Shown: positions 1,443 through 22,963, numbered from the stretch's first letter. The stretch is DNA of 32,000 nucleotides from an archaeon (GCA_021819105.1 JAKASK010000002.1:86992-118991), one strand, 5' to 3'. Notes: generated by a model not told the origin, from the letters alone. Numbers and translations: made by a program.

Positions 1443-1456
1443 CCTAACTGGTTCGG
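1443..1456. promoter_or_regulatory. Palindromic operator-like site CCTAAC-TG-GTTCGG
   Basis: 6-2-6 inverted repeat lying between the TATA-like box (1434-1441) and the TTG start (1468) of the first cupredoxin. One of seven copies of the family. Confidence 0.6.
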
Positions 1457-1467
1457 ATTCACCAAGC

Positions 1468-1908
1468 TTGAAGCGGAAGTACGTTTACCTCTCACTGGAG
1501 ATAATAGCCATCCTCGCGGTGACCTACCCGGTCATCTGGTCGGTCTACGCCGGGACCACCAGCGGCAACGCGCCGTTCTCCTGTCCCCCGCTGATCCCCT
1601 GCGACAACAACGCGCAGCCTGTCAGCACGACATGCACGACCTTCTGCATCATCAACATTCAGAACGCTGCCTTCTCTCCGGCCAACATCAACGTCACCCA
1701 GGGCGCCACCCTGGAGTGGGTCAACCTTGACTCGATAGCCCATACTTCGACGGCCGTCTACTCGGGCGCCTGGAACTCAGGGGTGATACCGCCAGGCGGG
1801 CACTTCCTCCTGACAGTCAACCTCGCGCCCGGGACGTACTACTACCAGTGCAACGTGCACCCGTTCATGACCGGCCAGATCAACGTGCTCCCCGCGGGCA
1901 GCACCTGA
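1468..1908 (+). CDS. Membrane-anchored type-1 (blue) copper protein, amicyanin/plastocyanin-like cupredoxin
   Basis: 146 aa with an N-terminal TM anchor. Cupredoxin pattern FSPANINVTQGATLEWVNLDSIAHT...GTYYYQCNVHPFMTGQINV. Ligand set is His...Cys-x2-His-x2-Met; CNVHPFM has the same spacing as the amicyanin loop CTPHPFM. Confidence 0.88.
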   Translation: MKRKYVYLSLEIIAILAVTYPVIWSVYAGTTSGNAPFSCPPLIPCDNNAQPVSTTCTTFCIINIQNAAFSPANINVTQGATLEWVNLDSIAHTSTAVYSGAWNSGVIPPGGHFLLTVNLAPGTYYYQCNVHPFMTGQINVLPAGST

Positions 1909-1921
1909 ACGCGGTTGGTTC

Positions 1922-1935
1922 CCTAACCCGTAAGG
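1922..1935. promoter_or_regulatory. Palindromic operator-like site CCTAAC-CC-GTAAGG (one mismatch)
   Basis: Lies 14 nt after the stop of the 1468 gene and 17 nt upstream of the T-rich TATA-like TTTTTTATT (1953-1961) that precedes GTG 1982. Confidence 0.45.
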
Positions 1936-1981
1936 GACGAATCCGATACCCTTTTTTATTCGGCTTTCCGGGATTTATCCC

Positions 1982-2599
1982 GTGGGCTCAGGAGTCAGAG
2001 CCATCCTTGTCTTCCTTGGCGGGATGCTGTTCACCGTCGCGTTAGGGGTAGCAACACAGTACAACATGCTGGTCCTGGCGCTCGGATCCATCGGGAGCAT
2101 GCTCTTCGCCCTCCGCGAGGGGTTCGTAGCCACAGGAGAAGAGGGAAGGGGGGCCACTAAGCTTCCGGTCAGGTGGATCTGGTTCGTAGGTTGCGTCGCC
2201 CTGGTCCTGCTGACGCTCACACCGATCCTTGGAGCCTACTCACCTACGATTGCCGCGACTGGGGGCGGTGGAGGCGGAGGTGGAGGTGCGGCACCCTCGG
2301 GGCTGACCCCGACATGCGGGAACCCGTGCATCATCATCATCAGGAACTCGGCCTTCGGTAGCGGCTCGCAGCTCCAGAACGGGAACGGATACGTCGTGGT
2401 GAAGGCGGGGACCACTGTGACCTGGGAGAACCGCGACAACACCCAGCACACCACTACCTCGACGGCCAGCCCGCCGCTCTGGGACAGCGGCATCCTGAAT
2501 CCAGGCCAGCAGTTCTCGCATACCTTCAACACCCCGGGGACATTCTCGTACATCTGCAACGTGCACCCGATGGCAGGAACTGTCGTAGTCGTATCCTAG
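1982..2599 (+). CDS. Membrane-anchored type-1 cupredoxin with 3 N-terminal TM helices and a poly-Gly linker
   Basis: 205 aa with a GTG start. Run of Gly codons at 2261-2287. Cupredoxin pattern VTWENRDNTQHTTTS...GTFSYICNVHPMAGTVVVVS (His...Cys-x2-His-x1-Met). Confidence 0.85.
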   Translation: MGSGVRAILVFLGGMLFTVALGVATQYNMLVLALGSIGSMLFALREGFVATGEEGRGATKLPVRWIWFVGCVALVLLTLTPILGAYSPTIAATGGGGGGGGGAAPSGLTPTCGNPCIIIIRNSAFGSGSQLQNGNGYVVVKAGTTVTWENRDNTQHTTTSTASPPLWDSGILNPGQQFSHTFNTPGTFSYICNVHPMAGTVVVVS

Positions 2600-2675
2600 A
2601 ACGCCTCTGTTCGGAAGCGCCTGCTTTGTGTCCTCTGCTGTGACTTGGCCATAGGGTGACTTTCTGCGCCCGTTC

Positions 2676-3143
2676 ATGCTCCAGGTCGGAGCGGCAGCCT
2701 TCCTCCTGTACGCTGCGCACAGGTTCTATCTGCAGTTTCTCCTGGTCGTCTGGGGGGCGGCCGTCATGGCTGGCATCGCCATCTATGAGAGGAGGGCAGT
2801 TGGGTGGACGCAAGTCCCGAAGGCGCTGGCCGAGGCAGGCAGGCTGGTCGAGCTGCGGCAGCGCCTGGCAGCCATCGAAGAGGAGCTTTCGGCGTCGAGC
2901 AAGGAAGAGGATGCGCGACACCTGCGCGCGTGGAAGGGGTCTGCCGAGCAAGGAATCCGAAAGACGGGGTGGTCGGTTGGGGAGTCAGGGCTCGAGGACA
3001 TCCAGAGCGCCTCGGGCCCCGATGGAATGGGCCCCCTGCCACCGCGGGGGGGACCCGGAAGCGGCGGAGCCAGCAGGAGCGCGAGTGGAGTCACCTGCTG
3101 GATTCGTTCGACGAGTAGGAGGTTCTGGCGTCCGAGCCGCTAG
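2676..3143 (+). CDS. Hypothetical 2-TM plus coiled-coil protein, probably frameshifted near 3046-3052
   Basis: ATG ORF with two N-terminal hydrophobic helices and a heptad-like segment (LVELRQRLAAIEEEL). High GC3 holds in this frame only to about 3050. After the G7 run the neighbouring frame has the coding-like GC3 and ends ...QQEREWSHLLDSFDE at TAG 3116-3118. Confidence 0.4.
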   Translation: MLQVGAAAFLLYAAHRFYLQFLLVVWGAAVMAGIAIYERRAVGWTQVPKALAEAGRLVELRQRLAAIEEELSASSKEEDARHLRAWKGSAEQGIRKTGWSVGESGLEDIQSASGPDGMGPLPPRGGPGSGGASRSASGVTCWIRSTSRRFWRPSR

Positions 3144-3169
3144 AGTCCGCCAGGGCCAGGCTCGAGCTG

Positions 3170-3436
3170 ATGGCGGCGAACGTCAGAGCGCACTGTCGGC
3201 TGCTGAGGGAACTCGAGCGCAGAAGCAGTAACCCGGGGGACTATGGAGACGCCTGGGCTCCCTTCGCTTCGACCGCCAAAAGGGCGACGTCGGACCACGA
3301 CGTCCGAGTCCATGCCTCCAGGAAGGCCAGGGCGAAGTTAGACGGCCCCTACGACTTGGCCACCTCCAGGGGCCCGGTTGCAGGGGAAGCGGCAGGGACG
3401 GAGAAGCTGGAAGATGACGCTGAACGCCGGAAGTAA
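3170..3436 (+). CDS. Hypothetical protein (88 aa)
   Basis: ATG ORF with high GC3 by hand count. It is in the same frame as the post-frameshift tail of the upstream gene. No recognisable motif. Confidence 0.35.
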   Translation: MAANVRAHCRLLRELERRSSNPGDYGDAWAPFASTAKRATSDHDVRVHASRKARAKLDGPYDLATSRGPVAGEAAGTEKLEDDAERRK

Positions 3437-3448
3437 GTTGCTGCGGAC

Positions 3449-4429
3449 TCAGCTCGTCGTGCCGCAGGCAGTCGCGTGGCTGGTGCAGTAGGGGTTAGGG
3501 AGGACCACCAGGTAGCCGAACATCCCATTGGAGACGTGGTAGTGGCAGAAGAACTCGTAGATGCCGGGCTGCGTTGCCTGGAAAGCCGCCACCCCGTACA
3601 CTTCGGAGTACCCTGCCGAGGTGTTGAGCAGGATCATGTGGACTAGGTTGTCCACCGGGACGTCTTGGATGGACGGAGGGCTGATGGTCGGAACGCCGTT
3701 CTGTGCGACGACGAAGTTGGTCGCGGGCGAGGTCACTGGCATGAGGGCAGTCCCGGACACGCAGTACACTCCTGAAACCCCTGCGGACTCCTGCGCAAAT
3801 GTCCCGCTGTTCGAGCACGACCCGGGAATGTTGGCGTTGGTCACGAAGTTGTGCATCCCTGCCATCGAGTCGTTGATCTGGAAGTTGTAGTACCCTGTGG
3901 CAAGGGTGAAGGTGTGGGCGTCGGTATCGTTGTGAATGAACATTATCTGCACTATGTCCCCTTGGTTCACCACTATCTGGTTAGGGCAGAACCGGTCCTG
4001 ACCAGTATTGTCAGTGTTGCACCAGTCAATCTTGTAGGCTACAGTCTTCGGCTGGACCCCCAGCGAGGCGAGCGCCGCGTTGAGGCTCGAACTCACGGCA
4101 GAAACCCCGGAGTTGGAATTCGCCGTGCTTTGAGCCTGGAAGGCGACCGAGAGAGAAGCGAGAGCGATCAAGATTGCTACCACTGCGACCGCGAGCGCCG
4201 CCCAAACTGTGCTCGAGGAGGTGGTCCCGCCGCCAGAGGCGACGGATGGGGCGCTCAGTGACCCTCTGTAGGCTGCGCCGAAGAAGAGCACTCCGGAGCC
4301 GATCGGGAGAAGTATCAGAGCCGATAGCATCGCGATGAACCCGGGCGTGACGTTCACGAACACACCATAGAACAGGAACATGCCCACCAGAGCAAGCAAG
4401 AGCCCGACCGAAGTTAGGGTTCTATTCAA
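3449..4429 (-). CDS. Membrane-anchored blue copper protein, sulfocyanin/rusticyanin-like cupredoxin
   Basis: 326 aa with a TTG start, 3 N-terminal TM helices and a Ser/Thr/Gly linker. C-terminal cupredoxin motifs: IMFIHNDTDAHTFTL...GIYEFFCHYHVSNGMFGYLVVL (His...Cys-x2-His-x4-Met). The GMFG.LVV tail resembles rusticyanin GMFGKIVV. Confidence 0.8.
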   Translation of the reverse strand: MNRTLTSVGLLLALVGMFLFYGVFVNVTPGFIAMLSALILLPIGSGVLFFGAAYRGSLSAPSVASGGGTTSSSTVWAALAVAVVAILIALASLSVAFQAQSTANSNSGVSAVSSSLNAALASLGVQPKTVAYKIDWCNTDNTGQDRFCPNQIVVNQGDIVQIMFIHNDTDAHTFTLATGYYNFQINDSMAGMHNFVTNANIPGSCSNSGTFAQESAGVSGVYCVSGTALMPVTSPATNFVVAQNGVPTISPPSIQDVPVDNLVHMILLNTSAGYSEVYGVAAFQATQPGIYEFFCHYHVSNGMFGYLVVLPNPYCTSHATACGTTS

Positions 4430-4444
4430 CCAATCACTGCTCGG

Positions 4445-4458
4445 CCTAACAGGTTAGG
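4445..4458. promoter_or_regulatory. Perfect palindromic operator-like site CCTAAC-AG-GTTAGG
   Basis: Perfect 6-2-6 inverted repeat between the TATA-like CTTTAAAAG (4467-4475) and the TTG start (4429) of the sulfocyanin-like gene. Confidence 0.65.
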
Positions 4459-4466
4459 GAAGGTTG

Positions 4467-4475
4467 CTTTAAAAG
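4467..4475 (-). promoter_or_regulatory. TATA-like box for the sulfocyanin-like gene
   Basis: CTTTAAAAG, about 42 nt upstream of the TTG at 4429 on the minus strand. Confidence 0.45.
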
Positions 4476-4580
4476 TGTTTAATCTTCCGTTCGTCTCCGC
4501 CGATTTACTGAAGATTCGTTCGGGAAAGTGGTCATGCTGACGGGCGGTGCGCCGCCCCGACAGAAAGTTCCCGACACTCA

Positions 4581-4590
4581 CTAAAAATAT
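4581..4590 (+). promoter_or_regulatory. TATA-like box for beta-propeller gene 4612
   Basis: CTAAAAATAT, centred about 26 nt upstream of the GTG at 4612 (leaderless geometry). Confidence 0.5.
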
Positions 4591-4611
4591 GACCGAAGGT
4601 TAGGTCCGATT

Positions 4612-6120
4612 GTGAATGTCGAGCGACTGCGCAGTTCGCGCCTGCTCTGTGCTCTGCTGATTGCGTTCTATCTGACGTCTTCGTCCCTCGCTGCGTCGGC
4701 TTACGGGAGCGGAGGATCCCACTCCGGGAACGGGACGGCACCTGGGCAGGACGCGTCGCCTCCGATCTCGACGGTCGCCGTCAATCAGAGCTCGGCTTAT
4801 CCGCTTGGCGTCGCGGCCGACAGGTCTGGCAACGTCTGGTTCGCAGAAGACAACCTCGACGCCCTGGCAGTGTACTCCCCCTCCAATGCGACCATGAAGA
4901 CGTTCCCCATCCCCACCCCGCACCACCTCGCATGGATTTGGTTCATGATCTTCGACGGAAATGGGAGCCTCTGGTTCTCGGACGCGTCGCAGCAGCTACT
5001 GTGGAGGTTCGACCCGGCCACAGGGGCCTTCGCCAACTACACCGCAGGCACGGCTTACCCGATGGTGCTGCACTACGACCAGCAAAGGAACAGGATGTGG
5101 TTCACGTCTCTGACGACCAGCCAGGTTGGTTACTTCGACATCGCGGGAGAGAGCGCGGTCCTCGACAGGGTCGTGAACCTCAGCTCGTCTGTCACCGGGT
5201 CGGGGGTCGCAGGTATCACCGTCGACTCTGCGGGCAACGCGTACGTGGCGGAGGCGCTACAGGCGAAGATCGTGGAGCTGGACGGCAACACCCTATCCAT
5301 CATCAGGACCTGGGAACTCACGCCCGGTTCTCAGCCTGTCGGGCTTGCGCTCGACCCCGCCCGGGGGCGCCTATGGTTTACAGACCACGCGTCGAGCTTC
5401 TTCGGGTACGTTGAACTGGACTCGGCTGGCTTCGTGGAATACCCCACGTCGCTCTTGTTCACCGGGGGCGAGTACGCCTTCACGCTCCCATATTGGATTA
5501 CCGTCTCCTCCTCCGGAGACGTGTGGTTCAACGAGCACATAGCCAACCGGATCGGCAGATTCGACCCTGCAACCCTGCAGCTTACGGAGTTCAACATCCC
5601 GACCAACAGCTCGTCCCCCCTGATGATCTCGGTGGACGACCGGACCGGGCAAGTCTGGTTCACCGAGTTTGCAGGCAACGCTCTGGGAGAGGTCGACGAG
5701 AATTCCACGCTCGGAGTCTCCGTCAGCGACAGCATCGCCGCGGGGACAGCAGCCCCTACGATATCGTTCACGAGCACCCCGAACCCCGCACCGGCTGCTC
5801 CCCCGACGGTCAGCATCACAGGGGAAAGCACGGGGGAACCCGGGCCCGCCTTCGGGGCGACCGCCAGCGCCCAGGAGAGCGCCTTCCTGGTCAGCGTGAC
5901 GGCCAACCGTGCGGGACCAGGGAACTACACGGCCGCCGTCTGCTACCAATACGCCTACGTCAATCAGTGCGGGTACCTCATGCTGGTGGTGCCGCCGCCA
6001 GGGTCCTCTCTTCCACTACTCTACTCGGTCTATGCAGCGACCGGGGTGGGGGTCGTAGTGCTGGTCCTTGCTCTCTTGCGCGAGACGCGGAGCGCCCGGC
6101 GCCGGCCGCGCACTGCGTGA
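4612..6120 (+). CDS. Surface-exposed beta-propeller repeat protein (Vgb/streptogramin-lyase-like, NHL-type) with C-terminal TM anchor
   Basis: 502 aa with a signal-peptide-like N-terminus. Repeated blades: SGNVWFAEDN, GSLWFSDAS, NRMWFTSLT, GRLWFTDHA, GDVWFNEHIANRIGRFDP, GQVWFTEFAGNALGEVD. Several N-x-S/T sequons. C-terminal hydrophobic helix followed by RETRSARRRPR. Confidence 0.8.
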   Translation: MNVERLRSSRLLCALLIAFYLTSSSLAASAYGSGGSHSGNGTAPGQDASPPISTVAVNQSSAYPLGVAADRSGNVWFAEDNLDALAVYSPSNATMKTFPIPTPHHLAWIWFMIFDGNGSLWFSDASQQLLWRFDPATGAFANYTAGTAYPMVLHYDQQRNRMWFTSLTTSQVGYFDIAGESAVLDRVVNLSSSVTGSGVAGITVDSAGNAYVAEALQAKIVELDGNTLSIIRTWELTPGSQPVGLALDPARGRLWFTDHASSFFGYVELDSAGFVEYPTSLLFTGGEYAFTLPYWITVSSSGDVWFNEHIANRIGRFDPATLQLTEFNIPTNSSSPLMISVDDRTGQVWFTEFAGNALGEVDENSTLGVSVSDSIAAGTAAPTISFTSTPNPAPAAPPTVSITGESTGEPGPAFGATASAQESAFLVSVTANRAGPGNYTAAVCYQYAYVNQCGYLMLVVPPPGSSLPLLYSVYAATGVGVVVLVLALLRETRSARRRPRTA

Positions 6121-7742
6121 GACCTCCTGGCCAGTAGAAGGCCCAGACCAGCCGCGGCGACCGAAGCCGCAGCAACGGAGACGACGATCCAGACGGGAAA
6201 GGGAGCGCCTGGCGTCACGATCAACTTCAGGATCGCGGAGTAGATCACCCCTCCCTGGGCAGTCGCGCTGAGGGTCAGGTAGTATACCCCTGGGTTCAGC
6301 CCCCCGAGGGAGAGGGTCAGCCCTGACGTCGCCCGAGAACCAGGGGCGAGGGTGACAGCGGAGCTATTGAACGCGGCCGTCATGTTCCGGAGCTGGCCCG
6401 TGATGGTGACCCCGCTCACCGAAAGAGAGAGGGTCGTGGAGTTCCCCGCGGCTTGGTAGAAGGACAGGGGGACGGTGACCTTCCCCCGGGCCCCAACCGT
6501 GAGATAGGAGTCAGGGAGCGTGAGCGAAAGGCGGGTCGGGCTCTGAATGGGCACGACCTCCCCTATGGCGTCCCCGCCTATCTCCACGAACCAGAGCCTG
6601 CCGTTGCGGTCCAGGGTAACAGAGTAGACCCCGGCTATGGCCGTGTCGCAGCATGCAACTGGATACTCGGTCATGACGCCAGAGGATGGTATGAACGCGG
6701 CGATCCTGTTCCCGTAGTGCTCCCCGATCCAGACCGTGCCGTTACTGTCGACGGCGATCCCGTTGGGGAAGGTGACAGAGTATCCGAGGGCGCCGAAGGT
6801 CTGGGAGGTCCAGTACTTCACCAGCGACTGGGTGTTGGGGTCGTAGCTGTCAAAGGAACTGTCGACGTGCTCCGTCAGCCACAGCTTCCCGGAAGGGCTG
6901 AGCGCTATGCCGCTGGGGGTCCGGATGCTCGAGTTGATGACCTCTGTGGTGCCTACGAAAGACGTCGGGTGCGTGAACGCGAAGACGTATGTCTGGTTCA
7001 GCGGCGCGAACTCGGTTATCCCCTGGCTGGTCCCGTTCTGGAGCTGCGAGATGACCGCCCTGCCAAGCATGTCCGAGTCGGCAGCGGTGAACCACAGGTT
7101 TCCCTTCCCGTCGAGCGCCATCCCCGCAGGCGCAGACTGGAAGACGGGGAGGTCGAAGCTGCTGAAGGTATCCGTCGCGGGGTTGAACTCGTCAATCTGG
7201 TTGGAGAAGAGGCAGGCGACCCAGATGTCGCCAGACGGGTCGGCCAAGACGGCCCCGGGTCCGCACTGCACTGCCTGGGTCGAAGCGTCCAGGGCCACCG
7301 TCTCGCCAGGGATGGGGTACTCCGCAATCGAGGCTCGGCCGGCTGGGAGTTCACCCAGCTTGTTCGAGGTCAGCTCCACGAACCAGATGTTCCCATGGGT
7401 GTCTGAAGCCACCGCGTCGGGGTTCGAGTGGTTGGTGGGGATCGGGTACTGAGTGAAGTTCCCCGAAGCCGGGTCGTACTCCCCGAGCTGGTTGGTGCCC
7501 TGCTCCACGAACCAGACGTTGCCCTGGGGGTCGGTGGTGATGGACCATGGCTCGGAGTTGCCTGCAGGGATGCGGTGCTGTACCAGGGCGTAACCGTCGG
7601 CCCAGACGAAGCTGTCACCGCCCGACTGCGAGGTGAGTTGCGCCCTGGCGGGACCGGGAGAGGCGGTGGTCAGTGCTACGGCGAGGAGCAGGAAGATGGT
7701 GGCGACGCTGGTGCCCGTCCGTACCCATTTGGGAAGCGACAT
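6030..7742 (-). CDS. Surface-exposed beta-propeller repeat protein (Vgb/NHL-like) with Ig-like stalk and C-terminal TM anchor; paralog of 4612..6120
   Basis: 570 aa with an ATG start and a signal peptide. Blades: GNVWFVEQGTNQLGEYDP, GNIWFVELTSNKLGEL, GDIWVACLFSNQIDEFNP, GNLWFTAADSDMLG, GKLWLTEHVDSSFDSYDP, GTVWIGEHYGNRIAAF, GRLWFVEIGGDAIGEV. These are followed by a beta-rich domain, a TM helix and an Arg-rich tail. Confidence 0.8.
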   Translation of the reverse strand: MSLPKWVRTGTSVATIFLLLAVALTTASPGPARAQLTSQSGGDSFVWADGYALVQHRIPAGNSEPWSITTDPQGNVWFVEQGTNQLGEYDPASGNFTQYPIPTNHSNPDAVASDTHGNIWFVELTSNKLGELPAGRASIAEYPIPGETVALDASTQAVQCGPGAVLADPSGDIWVACLFSNQIDEFNPATDTFSSFDLPVFQSAPAGMALDGKGNLWFTAADSDMLGRAVISQLQNGTSQGITEFAPLNQTYVFAFTHPTSFVGTTEVINSSIRTPSGIALSPSGKLWLTEHVDSSFDSYDPNTQSLVKYWTSQTFGALGYSVTFPNGIAVDSNGTVWIGEHYGNRIAAFIPSSGVMTEYPVACCDTAIAGVYSVTLDRNGRLWFVEIGGDAIGEVVPIQSPTRLSLTLPDSYLTVGARGKVTVPLSFYQAAGNSTTLSLSVSGVTITGQLRNMTAAFNSSAVTLAPGSRATSGLTLSLGGLNPGVYYLTLSATAQGGVIYSAILKLIVTPGAPFPVWIVVSVAAASVAAAGLGLLLARRSHAVRGRRRALRVSRKRARTSTTTPTPVAA

Positions 7743-7799
7743 CAGAAGATGGAAACCGCGCCGGCTCGCAATGCAGTTTAACCTTTCCCCGGAAGACGG

Positions 7800-8288: not shown

Positions 8289-8386
8289 GTGGTTTCATCA
8301 CGCGCGCCAGTGAATTGTAGTTAAGAGTTTCGAGCCGTCGGACCCCAGATGGTTTAAATCAAAAACAGAATCGGTGGGAGGCAGTC

Positions 8387-8842: not shown

Positions 8843-8851
8843 CGGGGTCGA

Positions 8852-9373: not shown

Positions 9374-9375
9374 CC

Positions 9376-9389
9376 CCTAACAGCTAAGG
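9376..9389. promoter_or_regulatory. Palindromic operator-like site CCTAAC-AG-CTAAGG (two mismatches)
   Basis: Lies 3 nt after the stop of the 8852 gene and directly upstream of the A/T-rich ATAAATAA (9391-9398) that precedes GTG 9412. Confidence 0.4.
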
Positions 9390-9411
9390 CATAAATAACG
9401 ACGACGATGAA

Positions 9412-9594
9412 GTGCTAGGCACGAGACCCGAAACATTAGGGAAGTTCGCCATCATCCTGGGGGCAGCGCTGTTCGCGGTGCTAATGGACACCCTCCTCAT
9501 CCCCGTGGGACCCACCGTCGGCCCGATCATCGTCGGGGTCATGACTCTCCTGGCCTTGGCTCTGCTGGTCGTCGGCCTAGTGAAGAAAGGTTAG
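9412..9594 (+). CDS. Small two-TM membrane protein (60 aa)
   Basis: GTG ORF with two hydrophobic helices and a KKG end. No conflicting strong ORF. Confidence 0.45.
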   Translation: MLGTRPETLGKFAIILGAALFAVLMDTLLIPVGPTVGPIIVGVMTLLALALLVVGLVKKG

Positions 9595-9711: not shown

Positions 9712-10926
9712 TTATGGTGACTTCTCGGCGGGGTGGCCGTACTGGTTGTTGTAGCCTGGGAATCCGCTGTTGGTCTGGAAGTTGAAGCCCCACCAGAAGG
9801 ACACGCTGCTGTAGTAGAGCAGATAGGTCTCGCTACCCTGGCCTTGGGTAATCGCGAAGGCGATGTAGTAGTCCGAGGACGAGCTCGGGTTCATCTGGAG
9901 CTGATAGTTGTTCTCTCCGTGCTTCGAGAGAACCGAAGTCGACAGGGCCCTGACGAACTCTACGGTCCAGCTGTTGGTCTGGGCGTTGTAGACCCCCCTC
10001 GACTGTACCATGAACGGATTCATGAACTGGCTGACCCCGGTCGCGCTGGATGCGTTCGAGCCGTAAAGGCCTTGGGTGTTGATGTAGGGGAACTGGGTAG
10101 ACCCGGGGATACCGCCTATCTGATAGAACGACGTCGAGTTGGCGTATCCGTCGACTGCGTAGGAAGCTCCCGGCGAGAGGCCGAAGTCTGCCGTGTTCAC
10201 GGCCGTGCCGTTGGGGAAGGTCATGCCGGGATATCCTGTGTCTGCGGAGGAGTTGTCGGTGGGGTTGCTCTGCCACATCCAAAGCTCAGCGGAGCCGCCG
10301 GAACCAGTCCCGAGCGCTCCCGTGGTCCCGGGGACCATCTTCGGCTTGTAGGAGACCTGATACCAACCGGAGGTATTGGCTCCCGGATGGATTCCCAGCA
10401 TCACGATGGCCTGCTCGGGGTAGGTGTACTGAGACCCTTGGGCGAGCTGGTAGAACCCTACGTCCTGCGGGTACAGCCCACCGTAGCAGCTCGAAGTCGG
10501 GTAGAGGCAGGCGGGGTCATACATCGGGAACAGCCTGCCCGCGGGGTTCCCGGTATCATTCAGCATCGGTATTCCGGACGAGCCGTAGCTGGGGGAGCTC
10601 CCGAAGTTGGGGAACTGAAGCTTCACAATTAGCAGCGCCGTCCCTGATACGTTGGCCCAGGCCATCTGCACCTTTGCGAGGGTTGTCTCACCGGAAGGCG
10701 GATAGTTGCTAGACGGGATCAGCGGCACAGACTCTGTCGACACCCCGCTCCAGAAAGGCTCGGAACCGGGGCTGGCAAGGTTCGGCGTCCCGCTCACCTG
10801 GGGGACATAGATCGTGGAGAGCTGCGACGAGTACGCGTTGATCGCGTAGGAGACTGTGAACATCGAGATGAACAGGATGAACACCCAGGTTACGCCGACC
10901 CAGAAATATTTCGATGTTCTCCGCAA
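9712..10926 (-). CDS. Extracellular N-glycosylated protein, DOMON/ethylbenzene-dehydrogenase-like (CbsA cytochrome b558/566-like)
   Basis: 404 aa with a TTG start and an N-terminal TM anchor. At least 7 N-x-S/T sequons. Segments PFWSGVSTESVPL...AKVQMAWANVSGTALLIVKLQF and NSWTVEFVRAL...YYIAFAITQG...VSFWW match the EB_dh/DOMON pattern as I recall it (W...v.l...vkaa.d...; W.v.f.R.L...vafAv). Confidence 0.55.
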   Translation of the reverse strand: MRRTSKYFWVGVTWVFILFISMFTVSYAINAYSSQLSTIYVPQVSGTPNLASPGSEPFWSGVSTESVPLIPSSNYPPSGETTLAKVQMAWANVSGTALLIVKLQFPNFGSSPSYGSSGIPMLNDTGNPAGRLFPMYDPACLYPTSSCYGGLYPQDVGFYQLAQGSQYTYPEQAIVMLGIHPGANTSGWYQVSYKPKMVPGTTGALGTGSGGSAELWMWQSNPTDNSSADTGYPGMTFPNGTAVNTADFGLSPGASYAVDGYANSTSFYQIGGIPGSTQFPYINTQGLYGSNASSATGVSQFMNPFMVQSRGVYNAQTNSWTVEFVRALSTSVLSKHGENNYQLQMNPSSSSDYYIAFAITQGQGSETYLLYYSSVSFWWGFNFQTNSGFPGYNNQYGHPAEKSP

Positions 10927-11040
10927 GGACTGGCCTCAACCACTAATTAGGGCGCATATTTATCTTTCACCCAACGCTGAGACGTTCGACCCGCGTTCAC
11001 CTGTTAGGGATGTCTGCTGTGAAACCCTTAAGTAAAGCAG

Positions 11041-11247
11041 ATGGGTGCGCCAAGTCCGTTGCTGCCTATCCTCCAGGTCGCGACGACTTTCAGCGTCTTC
11101 GGTCTTTACTATTTCGTGTTCGGGCTCTTCGCCGCTCTGGGGCTGGTCATGCTCGGGATCATTCTTCTCGCAGAGCCGGACCCGCAGTACGACCTGTCGG
11201 AGATAATGGGGCCCGACGAGGACCCGGCCGACCAGACGGCGTCCTAG
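11041..11247 (+). CDS. Small two-TM membrane protein with acidic tail (68 aa)
   Basis: ATG ORF with hydrophobic helices followed by an acidic tail (DPQYDLSEIMGPDEDPADQ). Confidence 0.5.
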   Translation: MGAPSPLLPILQVATTFSVFGLYYFVFGLFAALGLVMLGIILLAEPDPQYDLSEIMGPDEDPADQTAS

Positions 11248-11253
11248 ACCGGC

Positions 11254-12040: not shown

Positions 12041-12550
12041 TTAGTTGCCCTGGCCGATCTCTGCAGCCATGGCGCCGGACGGCTGACCGTTCTCCAGGTA
12101 CCTCTTTACCATCGAGCAGCTCTTTTCGATGCCCATCTCGACTTCTTTCTTTATCTTCAACTTGTCGATGGCGGCGCCCAGGAGCCCGTAGCCGAGCTCA
12201 TAGTCTGCCTCGAAGGTCAGCTTTGTACCCCCCTGCATCGGCTGGAAGTGGACGGCGATGTCGTTCTTCTTGAACGGACCGTTGATCGCCTTCGTCTTGA
12301 TCAGCCTGTTGTCCTCGTACTCTGTCGTCTCGTTGTCCCATTCAAGTTCTCTCCCGCCGAAGTTCCCCGAAATCCTGAAGATAGTGCCCACCCCGAAGTT
12401 GTCCTTCACCTTCACCGGGGTCACCCTAATGCTTACGTCTGCAGGGAACGATTTTGCTATGTGCTCCGGCCTCGCGTAGTATGCAAAAACTGCCGCGACA
12501 GGAGCAGAGATGTCAACGCTGCGGGAAACTTTCGTCAACGGGCATTGCAT
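12041..12550 (-). CDS. SRPBCC (START/CoxG-like) ligand-binding protein
   Basis: 169 aa with an ATG start. The opening VSRSVDISAPVAAVFAYYARPEHIAKSFP is the typical SRPBCC opening. Confidence 0.65.
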   Translation of the reverse strand: MQCPLTKVSRSVDISAPVAAVFAYYARPEHIAKSFPADVSIRVTPVKVKDNFGVGTIFRISGNFGGRELEWDNETTEYEDNRLIKTKAINGPFKKNDIAVHFQPMQGGTKLTFEADYELGYGLLGAAIDKLKIKKEVEMGIEKSCSMVKRYLENGQPSGAMAAEIGQGN

Positions 12551-12582
12551 GATTAGGTTTCTATTTATAGATTTCTTGCAGC

Positions 12583-12596
12583 CCTAACAGGTTCGG
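12583..12596. promoter_or_regulatory. Palindromic operator-like site CCTAAC-AG-GTTCGG
   Basis: Lies in the 54-bp spacer between the stop of 12605..13054 and the ATG of the SRPBCC gene (12550), upstream of TATAAATAG (12561-12569, minus strand). Confidence 0.5.
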
Positions 12597-12604: not shown

Positions 12605-13054
12605 CTACTCCAGCCGGATTCTGACCATATCCTTCGGGGGGGCGTTCCCCAGGCCATCGTCCTTGGGGCTCTCGCGGGCTACCGAGAGGATCTTCGAGGG
12701 GGTCTGGACCAGGACATCGCCGGTGCTCCTCGACATGGACACGGTCACCGAGCGGCCTACGAACAGGGTGAACCCGACATTCTCCCCGGCAGTGCAGAAG
12801 TACATAACACGCCCGTCCCTGTCTACCTCGATCCGCCCTATCGAAGTCCGCGCCTCGAATATCTCGCCAGACACCGGTGAGTGCAGTTCGATGGTCAGCT
12901 TCTCCGTCGCCTCCTTCGAGTCGCCTCCCGCCTTCCCGGACGTGAGTTCTATCTGAAGGACCGGACGTGTGCCGTCGGCGCGAAACCTGTAGGTCTTGGT
13001 TTCAAGGGGATGCGCCGGTTCGGTAGGCGGAGGTGGGACCTGGCTGCCTGACAA
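12605..13054 (-). CDS. Hypothetical soluble beta-rich protein
   Basis: 149 aa with a TTG start about 25 nt downstream of the TATA-like CCTTATAC. No motif recognised. Confidence 0.55.
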   Translation of the reverse strand: MSGSQVPPPPTEPAHPLETKTYRFRADGTRPVLQIELTSGKAGGDSKEATEKLTIELHSPVSGEIFEARTSIGRIEVDRDGRVMYFCTAGENVGFTLFVGRSVTVSMSRSTGDVLVQTPSKILSVARESPKDDGLGNAPPKDMVRIRLE

Positions 13055-13347: not shown

Positions 13348-13348
13348 C

Positions 13349-15297: not shown

Positions 15298-15301
15298 CTT
15301 A

Positions 15302-15898: not shown

Positions 15899-15906
15899 AA
15901 CGACGG

Positions 15907-15920
15907 CCTAACGTGTTAGG
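15907..15920. promoter_or_regulatory. Perfect palindromic operator-like site CCTAAC-GT-GTTAGG
   Basis: Perfect 6-2-6 inverted repeat between the TATA box (15925-15934) and the TTG start (15898) of the oxidase operon. Confidence 0.65.
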
Positions 15921-15924
15921 GTTG

Positions 15925-15934
15925 AATTAAAAAA
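15925..15934 (-). promoter_or_regulatory. TATA box (TTTTTTAATT) of the oxidase operon
   Basis: A/T decamer centred about 31 nt upstream of the TTG at 15898. Confidence 0.55.
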
Positions 15935-15984
15935 CCTTTACAATCTCAGGGTAGACCGATTCTACGGGTAGGTATTAGGGGGGC

Positions 15985-16812: not shown

Positions 16813-16885
16813 TTCTTGGGCGTGGTTTCCGCGGTTCCCAGGCGTGTTAAGACTTGCGTCCGGTGGACCCGACGGACCGCCGTGC

Positions 16886-17464: not shown

Positions 17465-17501
17465 TCTGCGTCTCCGGCCCTTGTTGGCATCGGTGGAGGA
17501 C

Positions 17502-17837
17502 CTATGCCACCTTCACGAAGTTCTCGAGCTTGGATTTCAGCACTGCGGAGGGGACCGCGCCGACGATGATGTCTTCGACCTTCCCCTTCGCGAAGAACAT
17601 CACGGTGGGGATGCTCATGATCCCGAACTGCATGGCCAGCTCCTGGTTCGCGTCGGTGTCGACCTTCACGAACTTCACCTTGCCGGCGTACTCCTTTGAC
17701 AGCTGGTGAATCACTGGCTCCATCATCTTGCACGGCCCGCACCAGTCAGCATAGAAGTCGACCATGACGGGCTGCGGAGACTTCACCACCTCTTCCTGGA
17801 ACTTGCTTGCCTGCACCGCTACAACTGAGTCTGTCAT
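17502..17837 (-). CDS. trxA: Thioredoxin
   Basis: 111 aa with the WCGPCK active site and a typical thioredoxin fold sequence. TATA-like GATTTATGAA lies about 32 nt upstream. Confidence 0.95.
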   Translation of the reverse strand: MTDSVVAVQASKFQEEVVKSPQPVMVDFYADWCGPCKMMEPVIHQLSKEYAGKVKFVKVDTDANQELAMQFGIMSIPTVMFFAKGKVEDIIVGAVPSAVLKSKLENFVKVA

Positions 17838-17864
17838 TTCTGATGCAGCGACCGGTTCCCCCCT

Positions 17865-17874
17865 TCATAAATCT
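17865..17874 (-). promoter_or_regulatory. TATA-like box for the thioredoxin / CuA-like cupredoxin transcription unit
   Basis: GATTTATGAA (minus strand), centred about 32 nt upstream of the ATG at 17837. Confidence 0.5.
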
Positions 17875-17923
17875 GCCTTGGCCCGGAGTGGATGAGGTTA
17901 GGACCAACGTCGGCTAGGTCGCC

Positions 17924-18511
17924 TCAGACGACATCCAGGACCTTGAGCGTCCAGGACCCCGAAATGAGCACCCCGAGGGCGCCCATCCCCATCAGGAAAG
18001 AGTTCGAGTCCAGGTTCTGCGAAGACGAGTAGACCGTGTAGAACCCGGGCTGCCAGACGAGCATCATGGAGCCCATCATCCCGACCGAGAGGAACGTCAG
18101 CAGGAGCGCGCCTGCCCTGAACCCCCTGGGCATGGCAGTCACCGTGGTCCCGACCAGCACTCCGACGCCCAGGTAGGTGAGGTCGGCAACATACCTGAGC
18201 CCGACGTTGAGCACCGTCGCGTCGAAGGTGGGGGGGAAGTTCCAGAAAGCTAGCACAGCCCCGGGGATGATGAGCCCTCGGAGCAGGCTCCAACCCCAGC
18301 TCTTCTTCCTGTCCTTCCCTTCCGGATCTGTCCGCAGCCTTTCGAGGCCGTAGCCCAGCGAGATGGAATAGACGACGAGCAGGGCGCACTCGACCATCCT
18401 GGCCGTCAGATTGGCGTTCTCTAGCGCGTCGACCGGGGGGACCAAGATGGCCGCAATCAGCAGCACAGATGTCAGGACGAGGATGTTCGTCCGTCCCCGA
18501 TAGTCACCCAA
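17924..18511 (-). CDS. Polytopic membrane protein, possibly CtaG-type (caa3_CtaG-like) oxidase assembly factor
   Basis: 195 aa with a TTG start and about 5 TM helices. FWNFPPTFDATVLNVGLRYVADLTYLGVGVLVG resembles the W.P.lfd.a....l.h..fl..G core of the Bacillus-type CtaG family, but the usual His residues are missing. Met-rich segments (MMGSMM, MGMG). Confidence 0.35.
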   Translation of the reverse strand: MGDYRGRTNILVLTSVLLIAAILVPPVDALENANLTARMVECALLVVYSISLGYGLERLRTDPEGKDRKKSWGWSLLRGLIIPGAVLAFWNFPPTFDATVLNVGLRYVADLTYLGVGVLVGTTVTAMPRGFRAGALLLTFLSVGMMGSMMLVWQPGFYTVYSSSQNLDSNSFLMGMGALGVLISGSWTLKVLDVV

Positions 18512-18671
18512 ACTCAGATTCGTGATTACCTAGCCGCTCCTGAGGCCGCGCCCCCTTTCAGTCATTTGAACCTTCTCAGCAGCGCTTCGCCGCCCTCAAT
18601 CCTTAAAGTCGGGAAGAGGTGCTGAGGCCTGTTCTTTTGAAAGCTGCCAGGCACCACAGAGGTCTTCCTAG

Positions 18672-20771
18672 ATGACCCCGGGTGACCTTCTCCTCTGGGC
18701 CCTGGCCGCTTCGATGGCGTCGGTCATCTCCTACTCGCTGAAGTGGACCGTCGAGAACAGGAACAGGGCAGGGTCCCTGGCGGTCCCGCTGGTGGTCTTC
18801 GTCCTGGTGATGATGCTGTCGATGGTCGTCAGCGCAGTGGTCTACTTCTCCGCGCCGAGCCTGGGAACCCTCGTCGACCTCGTCGTGGTGAACATGATCG
18901 TCATGGGCGGCGGGGCCCTCCCGTTCGTCCTGGTCATCTTCAGGTCTCTCCTTGCAGAGGAAGGGAGCCCTCCAGGGACGGCGACCCAGGTCGATGCCGG
19001 CGCGAAGGTCCGCAGGTCGTGGGGAGGGCCGGGGCCGGCCGCGGCAGTGGTCACTCTTGTGCTCCTGAACGAGTTCTTCATGGGGTGGGCCTTTCAGCTT
19101 GCAGGAGGCACCTTTCCGGCGGCTCCAGGCCAAGGCTTCGTTCCGCTCTTCTCCGCGGTGGTGAGCTCATACTGGTTCCTCTTCACCATGGCCTTCGAGA
19201 TGGCGTTCACGGCCTTCCTACTCAGGAAGGAGATTTCGAGCGCACTCCTCGTGGTCATCGCCTTCCAGGCGGCTGTTATGTTCCTCTCCCCACCCGCCTT
19301 CGTAAACCCGGGGTGGGTGACCGCCAGCGTGTTCGGCAGCAGCATCCTGATGATCCTTCTGTTCATCTACGCCTTCGAGCACCTCGCAAAGAACCCGATG
19401 GTGGGTCGGACCCTCTCGAGGTACCTCATCCTCCTCTTCGGAGCCTACGCCGCGATGATGGCGGGCCTCTTCATCTGGGAGCTGAGCTCTTCCGCGTTCC
19501 TCTTTTCCCTGTCCATCCTGGCAGAAATGGGCGTCTACCTCGGCGTGGTCATGGGGGCGGACGGAGCGACGTCGATGAAGTCATGGAAGTCTGACCCGTG
19601 GTGGGTCCTCGGGGTGCTCACAGCCCTCTTTGTTGGGGAGTTCTTCATGGGAGCCCTGCTCGACGCGCAGGTGAGTGGGACGCAAGCGCTCTTCGCGACC
19701 GCGAGCCTGGTTCCGATTTCAGGCGGGGCGATCGGGTTGCTGAGCTCGTCGGTCTTCGACTTCCTCGGGTTCTTTTCCGCCGTCACCCTCTCCCCCTGGT
19801 TCCTAGTCATGATGGGGGCGGAGATGGGCGCGCTCGTCTTCTTCAGGATGAGGGAGGTAAGGGAGCTCGAGACCAGGGTGAGGCTTGGCATGGTGATCGT
19901 CGCCTACGGCGTCTACACCGTTCTCCTTCCCAACTTCCTGATACCGGGCTCGGCGCTCCCGAAGATTCCTTTCATAGGGTGGAACATGGGGGTCGGGACA
20001 GGCGGCCCGGTCGCGCCTGCGCTCTTGGTGGCCCTTGTCGGGACCTACGTCTTTTCGGGGGCCCTGTCGTTCCTCTTCGGGGCCCGGCAGTTCTGCTCCA
20101 TGTTCTGCAGCGCGGCGCTGATGTACCAGGGGACGTTCTATGACTCGATGAAGAGCTTCAACAGGACTTCGGCTATCGGCAGGAAGCTCCTCACCAGCAG
20201 GTTGTCTGACCTCTACAAGGCCGTGTTCTCGCTGGTGTGGGTCTCCCTCATCGCCGCCGTCGTTGTGTCCTACCTTGACTCCACGGGGGTCGCCCGACTC
20301 TACGTCTTTGGGACGGACCCGACCGTCTTCCTGTACACCTTCTACTTCGGCTTCCTCTGGTACATCGTCTTCGTGACGATACCCTTCGTCGGTACCTACG
20401 GCTGCGTGACTTTAGGGTGGTGCCACTGGGGCACCTTCAACCAGATAGTCAGCAGGCTGGGGTTCTTCAAGCTGAAGGTCCGTGACCCGAACGTCTGCGT
20501 GACCTGCGAGACAAAGGACTGCGCGAAGGCGTGTCCGGTGGGGCTCACGGACATGCCGGGGAGCTTCATGGCGAAGGGGGAGTACAAGAGCTCGAAGTGC
20601 ATCGGAGTGGGCGACTGCGTCGGAGCGTGTCCCTACAGCAACGAATACTTCTTCGACGTGAGGGGATGGCTTCGGGGTAGATCGAAAGGCGGGGGCGGGG
20701 CCATGGTCGACCTCGATTTCACCCTGAGTCGCGGCGTCGGGCAGCCAGAGAGCAGGCCCGCGGTCTCTTGA
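18672..20771 (+). CDS. Large membrane polyferredoxin: duplicated multi-TM N-terminal domain fused to a NapH/CcoG(FixG)-like Fe-S module
   Basis: 699 aa. Internal duplication: NEFFMGWAF...FSAVVSSYWFLFTMAFEMAFTAFLLRKE versus GEFFMGALL...FSAVTLSPWFLVMMGAEMGALVFFRMRE. The C-terminal half has ARQFCSMFCS and GCVTLGWCHWG (NapH/FixG-like membrane Cys motifs), then CVTCETKDCAKACP and CIGVGDCVGACP ferredoxin motifs. Confidence 0.8.
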   Translation: MTPGDLLLWALAASMASVISYSLKWTVENRNRAGSLAVPLVVFVLVMMLSMVVSAVVYFSAPSLGTLVDLVVVNMIVMGGGALPFVLVIFRSLLAEEGSPPGTATQVDAGAKVRRSWGGPGPAAAVVTLVLLNEFFMGWAFQLAGGTFPAAPGQGFVPLFSAVVSSYWFLFTMAFEMAFTAFLLRKEISSALLVVIAFQAAVMFLSPPAFVNPGWVTASVFGSSILMILLFIYAFEHLAKNPMVGRTLSRYLILLFGAYAAMMAGLFIWELSSSAFLFSLSILAEMGVYLGVVMGADGATSMKSWKSDPWWVLGVLTALFVGEFFMGALLDAQVSGTQALFATASLVPISGGAIGLLSSSVFDFLGFFSAVTLSPWFLVMMGAEMGALVFFRMREVRELETRVRLGMVIVAYGVYTVLLPNFLIPGSALPKIPFIGWNMGVGTGGPVAPALLVALVGTYVFSGALSFLFGARQFCSMFCSAALMYQGTFYDSMKSFNRTSAIGRKLLTSRLSDLYKAVFSLVWVSLIAAVVVSYLDSTGVARLYVFGTDPTVFLYTFYFGFLWYIVFVTIPFVGTYGCVTLGWCHWGTFNQIVSRLGFFKLKVRDPNVCVTCETKDCAKACPVGLTDMPGSFMAKGEYKSSKCIGVGDCVGACPYSNEYFFDVRGWLRGRSKGGGGAMVDLDFTLSRGVGQPESRPAVS

Positions 20772-20776
20772 GAGGG

Positions 20777-22012
20777 TCAGTCTTGAAGGGGAGGTGGTCG
20801 GGCGACGACCCCCGCCCTGGACTTCGCCATCGCGTCTGAAAGCGGGGTGCTCTTCAGCTCGTCCGCTGAGGGGTTGTATGTGACCAGGGTCGCCCCTTCG
20901 ACGACGCGCCAGACCAGCTTCTCCAGCCCCAGGCGGGCCACGGCGTCCGAGACCTCCTCCGCCTTCACCCTGGTCCTCGGGTGCCTGGTGATGATGGCGC
21001 AGCAGTCCTTGTACTCCTCCAGCGACAGGTCGTAGGTGGAGATCCGCCTTGCCATCCCGATTATCTCCTCCTTGTCGAAAGTGAGGAGCGGCCTCAGGAT
21101 TGGAAGGCTGGACCCCCGGTCGAAGGCACCGATGTTCCAGAGGGTCTGGGACGCGGCCTGCGAAAGCGAGTCCCCGGTCACGATCGCAGAGGCGCCGAAC
21201 CACGGCGCAAGGGCCTCGCAGGTCATCCGCATGAACCTCCTGAACAAGGAAGGCTCGAGGCCGCCCTCCTCCCCCGAAGTGGCTAGCTGATACTCGGCGA
21301 AGGGGACAAGGACCATGGTGCTCTTCCCTCCATAGGAAGAGAGGGCCTTCACGAGCCGGGGGACCTTGCTTTCGAAGGTGGCGAGAGGGGAAGGCGCGAG
21401 GTAGAAGTGGACGTAGACCGGGACGCATCCGCGCTTCATCGTCAACCAGGCGGCCACGGGGGAGTCGATGCCCCCCGAGAACAGCACCATCACGCGCCCC
21501 GCGGTCCCGACCGGAAGGCCCCCAGGCCCTCCCTGTTTTCTGGAGTAGACGATGGCGTTGCTCCTGGTGACGTCGACATGGAAGACGACCTCGGGGTGGG
21601 AAAGGTCGACCCTCTTCCCTGTCTGCTCCACGACAGCGCCCCCCAGGTCCGCCGCGATCTCCTGCGACTTCATGGGGAACGACTTGTCCGACCGCCTCGC
21701 CTCGACTTTGAACGTACTTCCGGCGGCCTCCCTTGCCAGCTGTAGAACCGAGGAGCGGATCTTCGGGAGGTCCCTCTCGACGATGGAGGCGGGAGAGAAC
21801 CACGCGACCCCGAAGGTAGAGCTTATGCTCCTTTCGATCTTTTCATCCGGCCCGTCGGCCGAGACAAGCAGCCTTCCTTCGCTGAGCGTTACCTGAGGCT
21901 GCATCCCCGATAAGGCACGGTAGAGGTTCCTCCTCAGGGTGCGGACGAACTCGGGCCTGTTCTTCCCCTTGAGCGCGACTTCGGCATAGTGCACTACGTA
22001 GACCCGAGCCAT
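20777..22012 (-). CDS. thiI: tRNA 4-thiouridine synthase / sulfurtransferase ThiI
   Basis: 411 aa. N-terminal ferredoxin-like plus THUMP region (VHYAEVALKGKNRPEF) and the PP-loop SGGIDSPVAAW. Confidence 0.9.
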   Translation of the reverse strand: MARVYVVHYAEVALKGKNRPEFVRTLRRNLYRALSGMQPQVTLSEGRLLVSADGPDEKIERSISSTFGVAWFSPASIVERDLPKIRSSVLQLAREAAGSTFKVEARRSDKSFPMKSQEIAADLGGAVVEQTGKRVDLSHPEVVFHVDVTRSNAIVYSRKQGGPGGLPVGTAGRVMVLFSGGIDSPVAAWLTMKRGCVPVYVHFYLAPSPLATFESKVPRLVKALSSYGGKSTMVLVPFAEYQLATSGEEGGLEPSLFRRFMRMTCEALAPWFGASAIVTGDSLSQAASQTLWNIGAFDRGSSLPILRPLLTFDKEEIIGMARRISTYDLSLEEYKDCCAIITRHPRTRVKAEEVSDAVARLGLEKLVWRVVEGATLVTYNPSADELKSTPLSDAMAKSRAGVVARPPPLQD

Positions 22013-22063
22013 CTCGGGGCAGCCTCGGCGTGCGCGGATAAAGCAGTTCGGGCGACTGGAGGC

Positions 22064-22930
22064 TCAGTGAAGGACCGCGGCCACCATGGCCACCAGGAAG
22101 ATAACGGCCAGGTACGGGCTCGAGAACTTGAACGCCAGCCATGCGTTTGCCTTGGTGGGGGACCTGAACAGCTTGATGTTCGTCGCCAGGAGGAGGAGGT
22201 CGAACACCAGCGCGACCCCGAGATACACGAAGAACCCGAGGCCAAGGAAGTAGTAGGCAAAGAGGAGGCTGACGGGTATGAGCATGAGGGTGTTGACCAC
22301 TATGTACCGCGACGCGGCCTGGGGGCCCACGATCGATGGGAGCATCGGTACGTTCACAGCCGAGTAGTCCTCCTCCGTTATCACCGCGAGCGACCAGAAG
22401 TGGCTCGGGGTCCAGACGAAGACGAGAGCCCCAAGCAGCCATCCCACCAGCGGGCTCTGGAAGGTCACCGCGTACCAGCCTGCAAGGGCAGCGCAGCTCC
22501 CCGCGAACCCCCCCAGCACGATGTTCCAGCTGGTCCTGGGCTTCAGAAAAAGGGTGTAAACCGGAACGTAAACGAACGCGCCCAGCCCTATGAAGAAGGT
22601 CGCGGCGAGGTCGAGGGTGAGCAACGCGACGGCAATCCCGGCAATGAGGAGACCGAACCCTAGGTAGAGGGCGTGGCCCGCAGGGACGATCTTGCCCGAG
22701 GGGAGGGGCCTCCCCATGGTCCTCTTCATCTTGGAGTCCATGCCGATTTCCAAGTAGCTGTTCAGCGCCAGGGCGCCGCTCGACGCCAGTGCCCCCCCTG
22801 CCAGGACCCCCAGAAGGGTAATGGGTGGGGGGATGCCTCTCGCCGCGACCACCGCCGAGCCCAGCGCGGCCATCAGTAGAAGCGGCGTTATCTTGGGTTT
22901 GGTCAGGGCGAGATAGTCAGAGAAACTCAA
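22064..22930 (-). CDS. ctaB: Protoheme IX farnesyltransferase (heme O synthase), UbiA family
   Basis: 288 aa with a TTG start. N-terminal YLALTKPKITPLL and a polytopic UbiA-type sequence with a Pro-containing loop RPLPSGK. Confidence 0.9.
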   Translation of the reverse strand: MSFSDYLALTKPKITPLLLMAALGSAVVAARGIPPPITLLGVLAGGALASSGALALNSYLEIGMDSKMKRTMGRPLPSGKIVPAGHALYLGFGLLIAGIAVALLTLDLAATFFIGLGAFVYVPVYTLFLKPRTSWNIVLGGFAGSCAALAGWYAVTFQSPLVGWLLGALVFVWTPSHFWSLAVITEEDYSAVNVPMLPSIVGPQAASRYIVVNTLMLIPVSLLFAYYFLGLGFFVYLGVALVFDLLLLATNIKLFRSPTKANAWLAFKFSSPYLAVIFLVAMVAAVLH

Positions 22931-22949
22931 TCAGCAAGGCTCCGTTTGG

Positions 22950-22963
22950 CCGAACGCCTTAGG
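22950..22963. promoter_or_regulatory. Palindromic operator-like site CCGAAC-GC-CTTAGG
   Basis: Lies in the divergent ctaB / CPTC-membrane-protein control region, 20 nt upstream of the ctaB TTG (22930) and downstream of the weak A/T element at 22971-22980. Confidence 0.45.

Follow-up and report, generated by a model that had tools for sequence, protein, structure and literature searches.

A recurrent CCTAAC-NN-GTTAGG palindrome as a probable operator of respiratory and copper-protein genes in a high-GC clade of Nitrososphaerota

Why does one 14-bp inverted repeat recur in front of so many genes of a single archaeal gene island? The question is raised by a 32,000-nucleotide (nt) stretch of archaeal DNA (GCA_021819105.1 JAKASK010000002.1:86992-118991), here called the window, in which a first-pass annotation marked seven copies of a 6-2-6 palindrome of the form CCTAAC-NN-GTTAGG and read them as binding sites of a dimeric or pseudo-dimeric DNA-binding protein. 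The window has a guanine-plus-cytosine (GC) content of about 62% and comes from the metagenome-assembled genome of an uncultured soil or mine member of the Nitrososphaerota (Thaumarchaeota). The family Gagatemarchaeaceae (non-ammonia-oxidising Group I.1c) has a reported GC of 54-62% (PMC10640624), and the window lies at the upper end of that range, a comparison made on GC only. Its island encodes four cupredoxins, two beta-propeller proteins, heme A synthase, heme O synthase, a CbsA-like protein, two SRPBCC proteins, CoxII-CoxI, a thioredoxin, a DUF1404 protein and a Rieske protein. We conclude that the palindrome is probably the DNA operator of a dimeric or two-domain transcription factor which co-regulates respiratory and copper genes in one high-GC clade of Nitrososphaerota. 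The candidate regulon that goes with this reading comprises three cupredoxins, the CoxII-CoxI oxidase, heme O synthase (ctaB), an SRPBCC protein and a membrane protein of 60 amino acids (aa). The sites are non-random, confined to promoters, conserved, and subject to turnover between lineages, as described below.

All seven 14-mers are present in the window with exactly the coordinates and sequences that the first-pass annotation had given (Table 1). The strict pattern CCKAACNNGTTMGG has four exact matches in the window as compared to 0.00 expected, and none of 100 shuffles gave any match. The broader consensus CC[TG][AT]A[CG]NN[CG]T[AT][AC]GG matches the window exactly seven times, against a mean of 0.11 and a maximum of 2 in 200 Markov-1 simulations, a test that is partly circular because the consensus was fitted to the seven sites themselves. 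When up to two mismatches were allowed, nine matches were found in the window (4.75 expected); the extra ones, at 437 and 3972, lie within genes and look like chance matches. Scored with a position weight matrix, the seven sites reach at least 17.3 bits each, and the next-best position in the window reaches 8.6. The seven sites agree in the outer CC and GG and in the A/T at positions 5 and 10, with no constraint on the two central bases. The earlier statement that all seven are intergenic also holds, as the non-coding part of the window, 11.8-12.5% of its length, contains them all; by simple arithmetic, the chance that seven random placements would all be intergenic is about 0.12^7 = 4e-7.

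These numbers bear on the trivial explanation, that the recurrence reflects chance, base composition, duplicated promoters or an element of the repetitive extragenic palindrome (REP) or miniature inverted-repeat transposable element (MITE) type. The hexamer CCTAAC is enriched throughout the window (18 copies vs. 8.9 expected), and three of the targets are paralogous cupredoxins, as composition and duplication would have it. Chance, however, is ruled out by the match statistics. Similarity among the flanks of the seven sites ends beyond the 14-15 nt core, outside which the flanks are unrelated, and the coxII, ctaB, SRPBCC and 60-aa protein genes are unrelated to the cupredoxins. A mobile or dispersed repeat would also have to account for copies that are orthologously placed, conserved above their flanks and limited to one functional island. 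We regard explanations of this kind as extremely improbable.

The window was extended by 10 kb on each side (contig JAFLYM010000001.1, GCA_029786115.1), so that 52 kb of the source genome were surveyed. The flanks carry housekeeping genes, among them those for tRNA synthetases, RadA, the pentose-phosphate pathway and an MMPL transporter, and in these 20 kb of flanking DNA no site with one mismatch or fewer was found. Within the 52 kb surveyed, the motif is island-specific and is not a general promoter feature. The bias toward intergenic over coding DNA holds both in these 52 kb and in about 243 kb of loci from the same clade.

The location of the sites relative to the core promoter is equally regular. 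In most window genes a TATA-like box ends 21-27 nt ahead of the start codon, which is often TTG, and this spacing implies that the transcripts are leaderless or nearly so. About 13 of the 29 window genes apparently begin with a TTG at this distance past a TATA-like box (e.g. those at 1468, 4429, 10926, 15898 and 22930), and the TTG start of coxII is kept in most relatives. All seven sites lie within 1-16 nt of a TATA-like box, and the division into two arrangements made in the first reading of the window is borne out. The sites at 1443, 4445, 15907 and 22950 follow the box by 1-8 nt and precede the start codon by 8-19 nt, and those at 1922, 9376 and 12583 follow a stop codon by 2-13 nt and precede the next TATA box by 1-16 nt. 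In archaea the distance from the TATA box to the transcription start is usually about 25 nt; therefore the four TATA-downstream sites would lie just upstream of the predicted start, over the footprint of TFB and RNA polymerase. For the SRPBCC gene, downstream of site 5, the start codon is at 12550 or, more likely, is the TTG at 12538.

Table 1. Coordinates of the palindromic sites, the conserved half-sites and the candidate regulator with its gene cluster. Positions are those of the window unless a locus is named.
Feature	Coordinates	Strand	Sequence	Context
Site 1	1443-1456		CCTAACTGGTTCGG	1 nt past TATA-like box 1435-1441; 11 nt ahead of TTG start 1468, cupredoxin 1
Site 2	1922-1935		CCTAACCCGTAAGG	13 nt past cupredoxin 1 stop; 16 nt upstream of TATA 1952-1960, cupredoxin 2 (start 1982)
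Site 3	4445-4458		CCTAACCTGTTAGG on gene strand, perfect palindrome	8 nt past TATA 4467-4474 (minus strand); 15 nt ahead of TTG start 4429, sulfocyanin-like cupredoxin
Site 4	9376-9389		CCTAACAGCTAAGG	2 nt past stop of 173-aa gene; 1 nt ahead of TATA 9391-9398, 60-aa membrane protein gene 9412-9594
Site 5	12583-12596		CCGAACCTGTTAGG on gene strand	8 nt past stop of orphan 149-aa gene; 13 nt upstream of TATA 12562-12569, SRPBCC gene
Site 6	15907-15920		CCTAACACGTTAGG on gene strand, perfect palindrome	4 nt past TATA 15925-15932; 8 nt ahead of TTG start 15898, CoxII-CoxI oxidase operon
Site 7	22950-22963		CCTAAGGCGTTCGG on gene strand	4 nt past TATA-like box 22968-22975; 19 nt ahead of TTG start 22930, ctaB (heme O synthase)
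Half-site	10946-10952	-	CCCTAAT	4 nt past TATA 10957-10964 of CbsA-like gene (start 10926)
Half-site	11003-11009	-	CCCTAAC, then AGGTGA	Between CbsA-like gene and small divergent open reading frame 11041-11247
Tandem winged-helix protein	25563-26156	-		HVO_0163-type N-terminal helix-turn-helix and ArsR/MarR-like helix-turn-helix
Regulator-membrane-Rieske cluster	24192-26156; L036 10001-11964; L037 8733-10677	- (window)		

CoxII, used as a query against public genomes and metagenomes, recovered a single close relative, locus L001 (REEA69), 97% identical in protein, and about twenty distant relatives with CoxII 69-81% identical and a GC of 42-52%. With the sulfocyanin-like protein and the tandem winged-helix protein as queries we obtained a graded series of further loci (L028, L029, L035, L031, L033, L034, L038, L039, L036 and L037). 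L001 and L028 are 72-83% identical to the window in DNA, and the sulfocyanin-like proteins of L029 and L035 are 79-81% identical to that of the window. The loci of the high-GC clade contain 25 matches with at most one mismatch in 243 kb, as compared to 2.3 expected, one of the 25 being an L001/L028 overlap counted twice, and all of these matches sit in intergenic regions of the island. In 213 kb of the low-GC relatives one such match was found vs. 1.4 expected. The low-GC relatives share the core genes of the island and its TATA-to-start spacing, and neither the motif nor a replacement palindrome was found in the orthologous promoters of 18 of them (CoxII 69-81% identical).

Conservation at orthologous promoters, which the first-pass annotation had proposed as a check, was observed in the close relatives, as L001/L028, L029 and L035 retain the palindrome at each such promoter that could be examined. 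The site of the sulfocyanin-like gene is the commonest, occurring in 8 of 9 high-GC lineages. The site of the 60-aa protein gene is found in five lineages, and L001/L028, L029, L034 and L035 share its imperfect half CTAAGG, with a centre that varies (AG, TG or CG). Four lineages have the SRPBCC site, which is kept in L001/L028, L029 and L035 with CT, GT or GG at the centre and is lost in L031 and L033. Four lineages likewise have the cupredoxin 2 site, orthologous in L029 and L038 and present in a 2-mismatch version in L028. The ctaB site occurs in three lineages; it is identical in L001 and L036, and a degenerate half, CCAAAG, is seen in L037. Both of the lineages in which the coxII promoter could be examined carry its site, with the centre changed from AC to GC in L001, and the site is absent in the 18 low-GC relatives despite the kept TATA-to-start spacing. 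In L037 the trx promoter contains a near-full site where the window retains a half-site only. Such gain and loss of sites between lineages is typical of the evolution of transcription-factor binding sites.

The cupredoxin 1 site is informative in another way. It occurs in three lineages and is absent in L031, L033, L034, L038 and L039. In L028 and L029 it is shifted 4-5 nt toward the start, with TATA box and start codon unmoved. Because the palindrome moved while the promoter frame stayed fixed, selection acts on having a palindrome there and not on a frozen sequence. The sulfocyanin-like promoter could be compared across eight lineages, in which the mean pairwise identity is 94% for the half-sites, 73% for the central NN and 93% for the TATA block, against 51% for the spacer between TATA and motif, 42% for the far upstream region and 40% for the last 9 nt before the start. 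Promoter confinement, orthologous conservation, constrained half-sites and site turnover together argue for the dimeric DNA-binding-protein reading proposed at the outset. At the sulfocyanin-like promoter of L039, the most distant high-GC lineage, another perfect palindrome, ACGGC-ATA-GCCGT, occupies the motif position (9950-9975), and a near-match, CCTAACAGGTTCGC, is found upstream, about 110 nt from the start codon.

Could the palindrome instead work as a small hairpin in RNA or single-stranded DNA, such as a terminator, a processing site or a 5'-end structure? The first reading of the window had set this aside on account of the 2-nt loop. That argument was imprecise, as the geometry would allow a 5-bp stem with a 4-nt loop, and three sites do directly follow stop codons. 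The conclusion nevertheless stands on the folding energies, which for the core are only 0 to -2.1 kcal/mol, with shuffle z-scores of -1.5 to +0.2 that are not significant. Four sites lie between TATA and the predicted start and are not expected in the transcript, and Rfam and tRNA scans gave no match at any of the seven sites. Furthermore, the mismatched halves CTAAGG, GTAAGG and GTTCGG persist across lineages (CTAAGG in five of them) with no compensating changes, and this persistence fits recognition by a protein and does not fit base pairing. A hairpin function is therefore very unlikely.

A second way to read a motif that always adjoins the TATA box is as a specialised core-promoter element for an alternative basal factor, i.e. 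a paralogue of TFB or TBP. Thaumarchaeota encode several TFB paralogues, and the sites have a polarity relative to transcription. In gene orientation a C precedes the motif at every one of the seven window sites and in 27 of the 29 orthologous site sequences, whereas a G follows it at only two of the seven and in 12 of the 29. The fixed geometry of such an element, however, fits poorly with sites on both sides of TATA, with spacings of 1-16 nt and with the 4-5 nt shift at cupredoxin 1. The palindromic form is also unlike a TFB-recognition element (BRE) or an initiator element. We consider this explanation improbable, and return to the operator reading.

How such an operator would act can be proposed from its placement. 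A dimeric or two-domain protein would recognise the CCTAAC half-sites. At the class I promoters (cupredoxin 1, sulfocyanin-like, coxII and ctaB) the site fills the gap between TATA and start, and a bound protein would block recruitment of RNA polymerase and thereby repress. At the class II promoters (cupredoxin 2, 60-aa protein and SRPBCC) a protein bound just upstream of TATA might recruit TBP/TFB and activate. Alternatively, where the site abuts TATA, as in front of the 60-aa protein gene, occlusion of the BRE could result in repression in this class as well. Copper, oxygen or an electron donor are plausible signals because the targets are blue-copper proteins, a heme-copper oxidase and heme O synthase.

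This arrangement can be compared with several known systems. TrmBL1 of Pyrococcus furiosus binds the motif TATCAC-N5-GTGATA, which represses when downstream of TATA, where polymerase recruitment is blocked, and activates when upstream of BRE/TATA (PMC4706686). The likeness lies in a short palindrome on either side of TATA through which a single metabolic gene set becomes a regulon. The spacing differs (6-2-6 here vs. 6-5-6), as do the sequence, the phylum and the gene set, and for the palindrome described here binding and regulation are predicted. No TrmB-family gene was found near the island. CopR, also of P. furiosus, has the semi-palindrome TTNNCAWWWTGNNAA directly upstream of BRE (PMC7830388) and thus offers another archaeal palindrome adjoining the core promoter of copper-related genes. 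Its motif, however, is AT-rich and unrelated, and CopR governs copper detoxification (copA) and not cupredoxins or an oxidase. The protein itself is of the Lrp type, forms an octamer and has a TRASH domain, and no gene of this type was seen in the surveyed DNA. In Nitrososphaera viennensis the copper-responsive promoter motifs TTCSGSMTTTGWACYANT and an AT-rich 27-mer have been described (PMC7785015). These resemble the present motif in that they come from the same phylum, are predicted, are common to copper-related genes, are kept in close relatives and have no assigned regulator. Their sequences are unrelated, with no 6-2-6 palindrome, and they were derived from an ammonia oxidiser with transcriptome data, whereas ours comes from sequence alone. 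In sum, the logic appears to be that of known archaeal palindromic operators (TrmBL1, CopR), with a dependence on position like that of TrmBL1 and SurR, and the sequence matches none that we found.

The hexamers themselves raise a further possibility, that the sites are DtxR/IdeR-type iron boxes under a metal-dependent repressor of the DtxR family. The iron-box consensus TTAGGTTAGCCTAACCTAA includes both GTTAGG and CCTAAC, and papers on DtxR are the main literature matches for both words; no matching motif was found in the literature searched. The resemblance ends with these words. In the iron box the order of the halves is reversed (GTTAGG, then CCTAAC), and the halves overlap at the centre of a 19-bp site that binds two dimers, unlike the 14-bp CCTAAC-NN-GTTAGG arrangement. 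Nor did the survey of 52 kb reveal a gene of the DtxR family. An iron-box identity is thus highly improbable.

Several observations weigh against the operator reading or limit it. The polarity described above is not predicted by a purely symmetric dimer site. At ctaB the entire block from TATA to motif is conserved, so that conservation there is not specific to the motif. Lone half-sites may mean that recognition is not strictly dimeric. Half-sites near other starts had been listed in the first-pass annotation; those in front of the propeller gene (4598) and of trx (17897) are not conserved, but the pair near the CbsA-like gene is. Of this pair, the CCCTAA at 10946-10952 is kept in L028, L029, L033 and L035, with no recognisable second half beside it, and the other half-site is found in L028, L029 and L035 and missing from L031 and L039. 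The scan of the source genome spans only about 52 kb, which limits any claim of genome-wide specificity. The transcription starts are predictions from TATA position and leaderless spacing. Finally, we infer protein binding, an effect on expression, the sign of regulation and the signal from what the DNA and its relatives contain. Beside the CbsA-like gene, an apparent 327-bp gap holds a small conserved membrane-protein open reading frame (11041-11247, plus strand; ~62-68 aa) that is annotated in relatives.

Which protein binds the palindrome? The tandem winged-helix protein (Table 1) is the sole transcription factor that could be recognised in the surveyed 52 kb, and none of the other neighbouring unknown proteins has a helix-turn-helix domain. 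It is a weak candidate. The lone hint in its favour is that its second recognition helix is clade-specific (WNLKRL vs. WHLKRL). Homologues at 50-80% identity are widespread in Nitrososphaerota beyond the motif-bearing clade. One is also found on the 1.83-Mb contig that carries the sulfocyanin homologue P0017, whose locus, L039, has at most one upstream near-match. The promoter of the tandem winged-helix gene itself contains no motif in the window, in L036 or in L037, and no close solved structure of the protein was found. We did not accept it as the cognate regulator, as its distribution is far wider than that of the motif and its own promoter is motif-free.

The tandem winged-helix gene forms a conserved cluster with the genes of a 103-aa membrane protein (weak DUF5985/DUF7471 matches) and a Rieske protein. 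One may imagine that the palindrome is the operator of this protein as a pseudo-dimer, gated by the adjacent membrane and Rieske proteins, and that the regulon grew, within one sub-clade, from the sulfocyanin-like promoter to the oxidase, heme O synthase and the other cupredoxins. We think this specific model unlikely, though worth stating. If it were true, a membrane-linked redox or copper sensor would directly gate the whole putative Cu/Fe-dependent respiratory chain in Thaumarchaeota from acid soils and mines. The L034 locus has DUF8036 and a small ArsR-like gene beside its Rieske gene in place of the regulator. The ArsR-like gene was dismissed as a counterpart, as it shows no homology to the window regulator at E 1e-6.

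The orphan 149-aa protein (12605-13054, minus strand) was also considered. Its clade distribution fits that of the motif: the family comprises 29 proteins among 5.8 billion, all at least 56% identical and in the high-GC clade only, with about 20 representatives. The protein is all-beta in an AlphaFold model of modest confidence (predicted local distance difference test, pLDDT, 65) with no significant fold match, and neither Pfam nor NCBIfam gave a match. It was rejected as the regulator, as nothing points to DNA binding.

To our knowledge, transcriptional control in the non-ammonia-oxidising Thaumarchaeota is essentially uncharted, and these organisms are uncultured. The candidate operator would predict that blue-copper proteins are switched together with the terminal oxidase, with heme O synthesis and with two proteins without an assigned function. 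The latter, the SRPBCC protein and the 60-aa membrane protein, can be assigned tentatively to the respiratory module because their promoters carry it. The motif is usable as bait to identify the regulator, and the graded presence of sites across lineages would offer a small natural example of a regulon growing from one ancestral promoter. No general principle of archaeal regulation is altered by these results, which are useful to specialists and not surprising.

A few features of the region unrelated to the palindrome were also observed. At 2676-3436 (plus strand) the window has two frames, 2676-3143 and 3170-3436, where relatives have one protein of 250-271 aa (L031 10991-11806; L035 10814-11611), which suggests a frameshift or an assembly error. 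A 119-nt tRNA match at 23966-24084 (plus strand), detected by Rfam and missed by ARAGORN, is probably an intron-containing archaeal tRNA. In some relatives, though not in the window lineage, RadA contains an intein with a LAGLIDADG endonuclease (L029 20835-20930; L038 1-420; L022 1-996). A Cas12f1/TnpB-like gene lies about 9 kb past the right end of the window.

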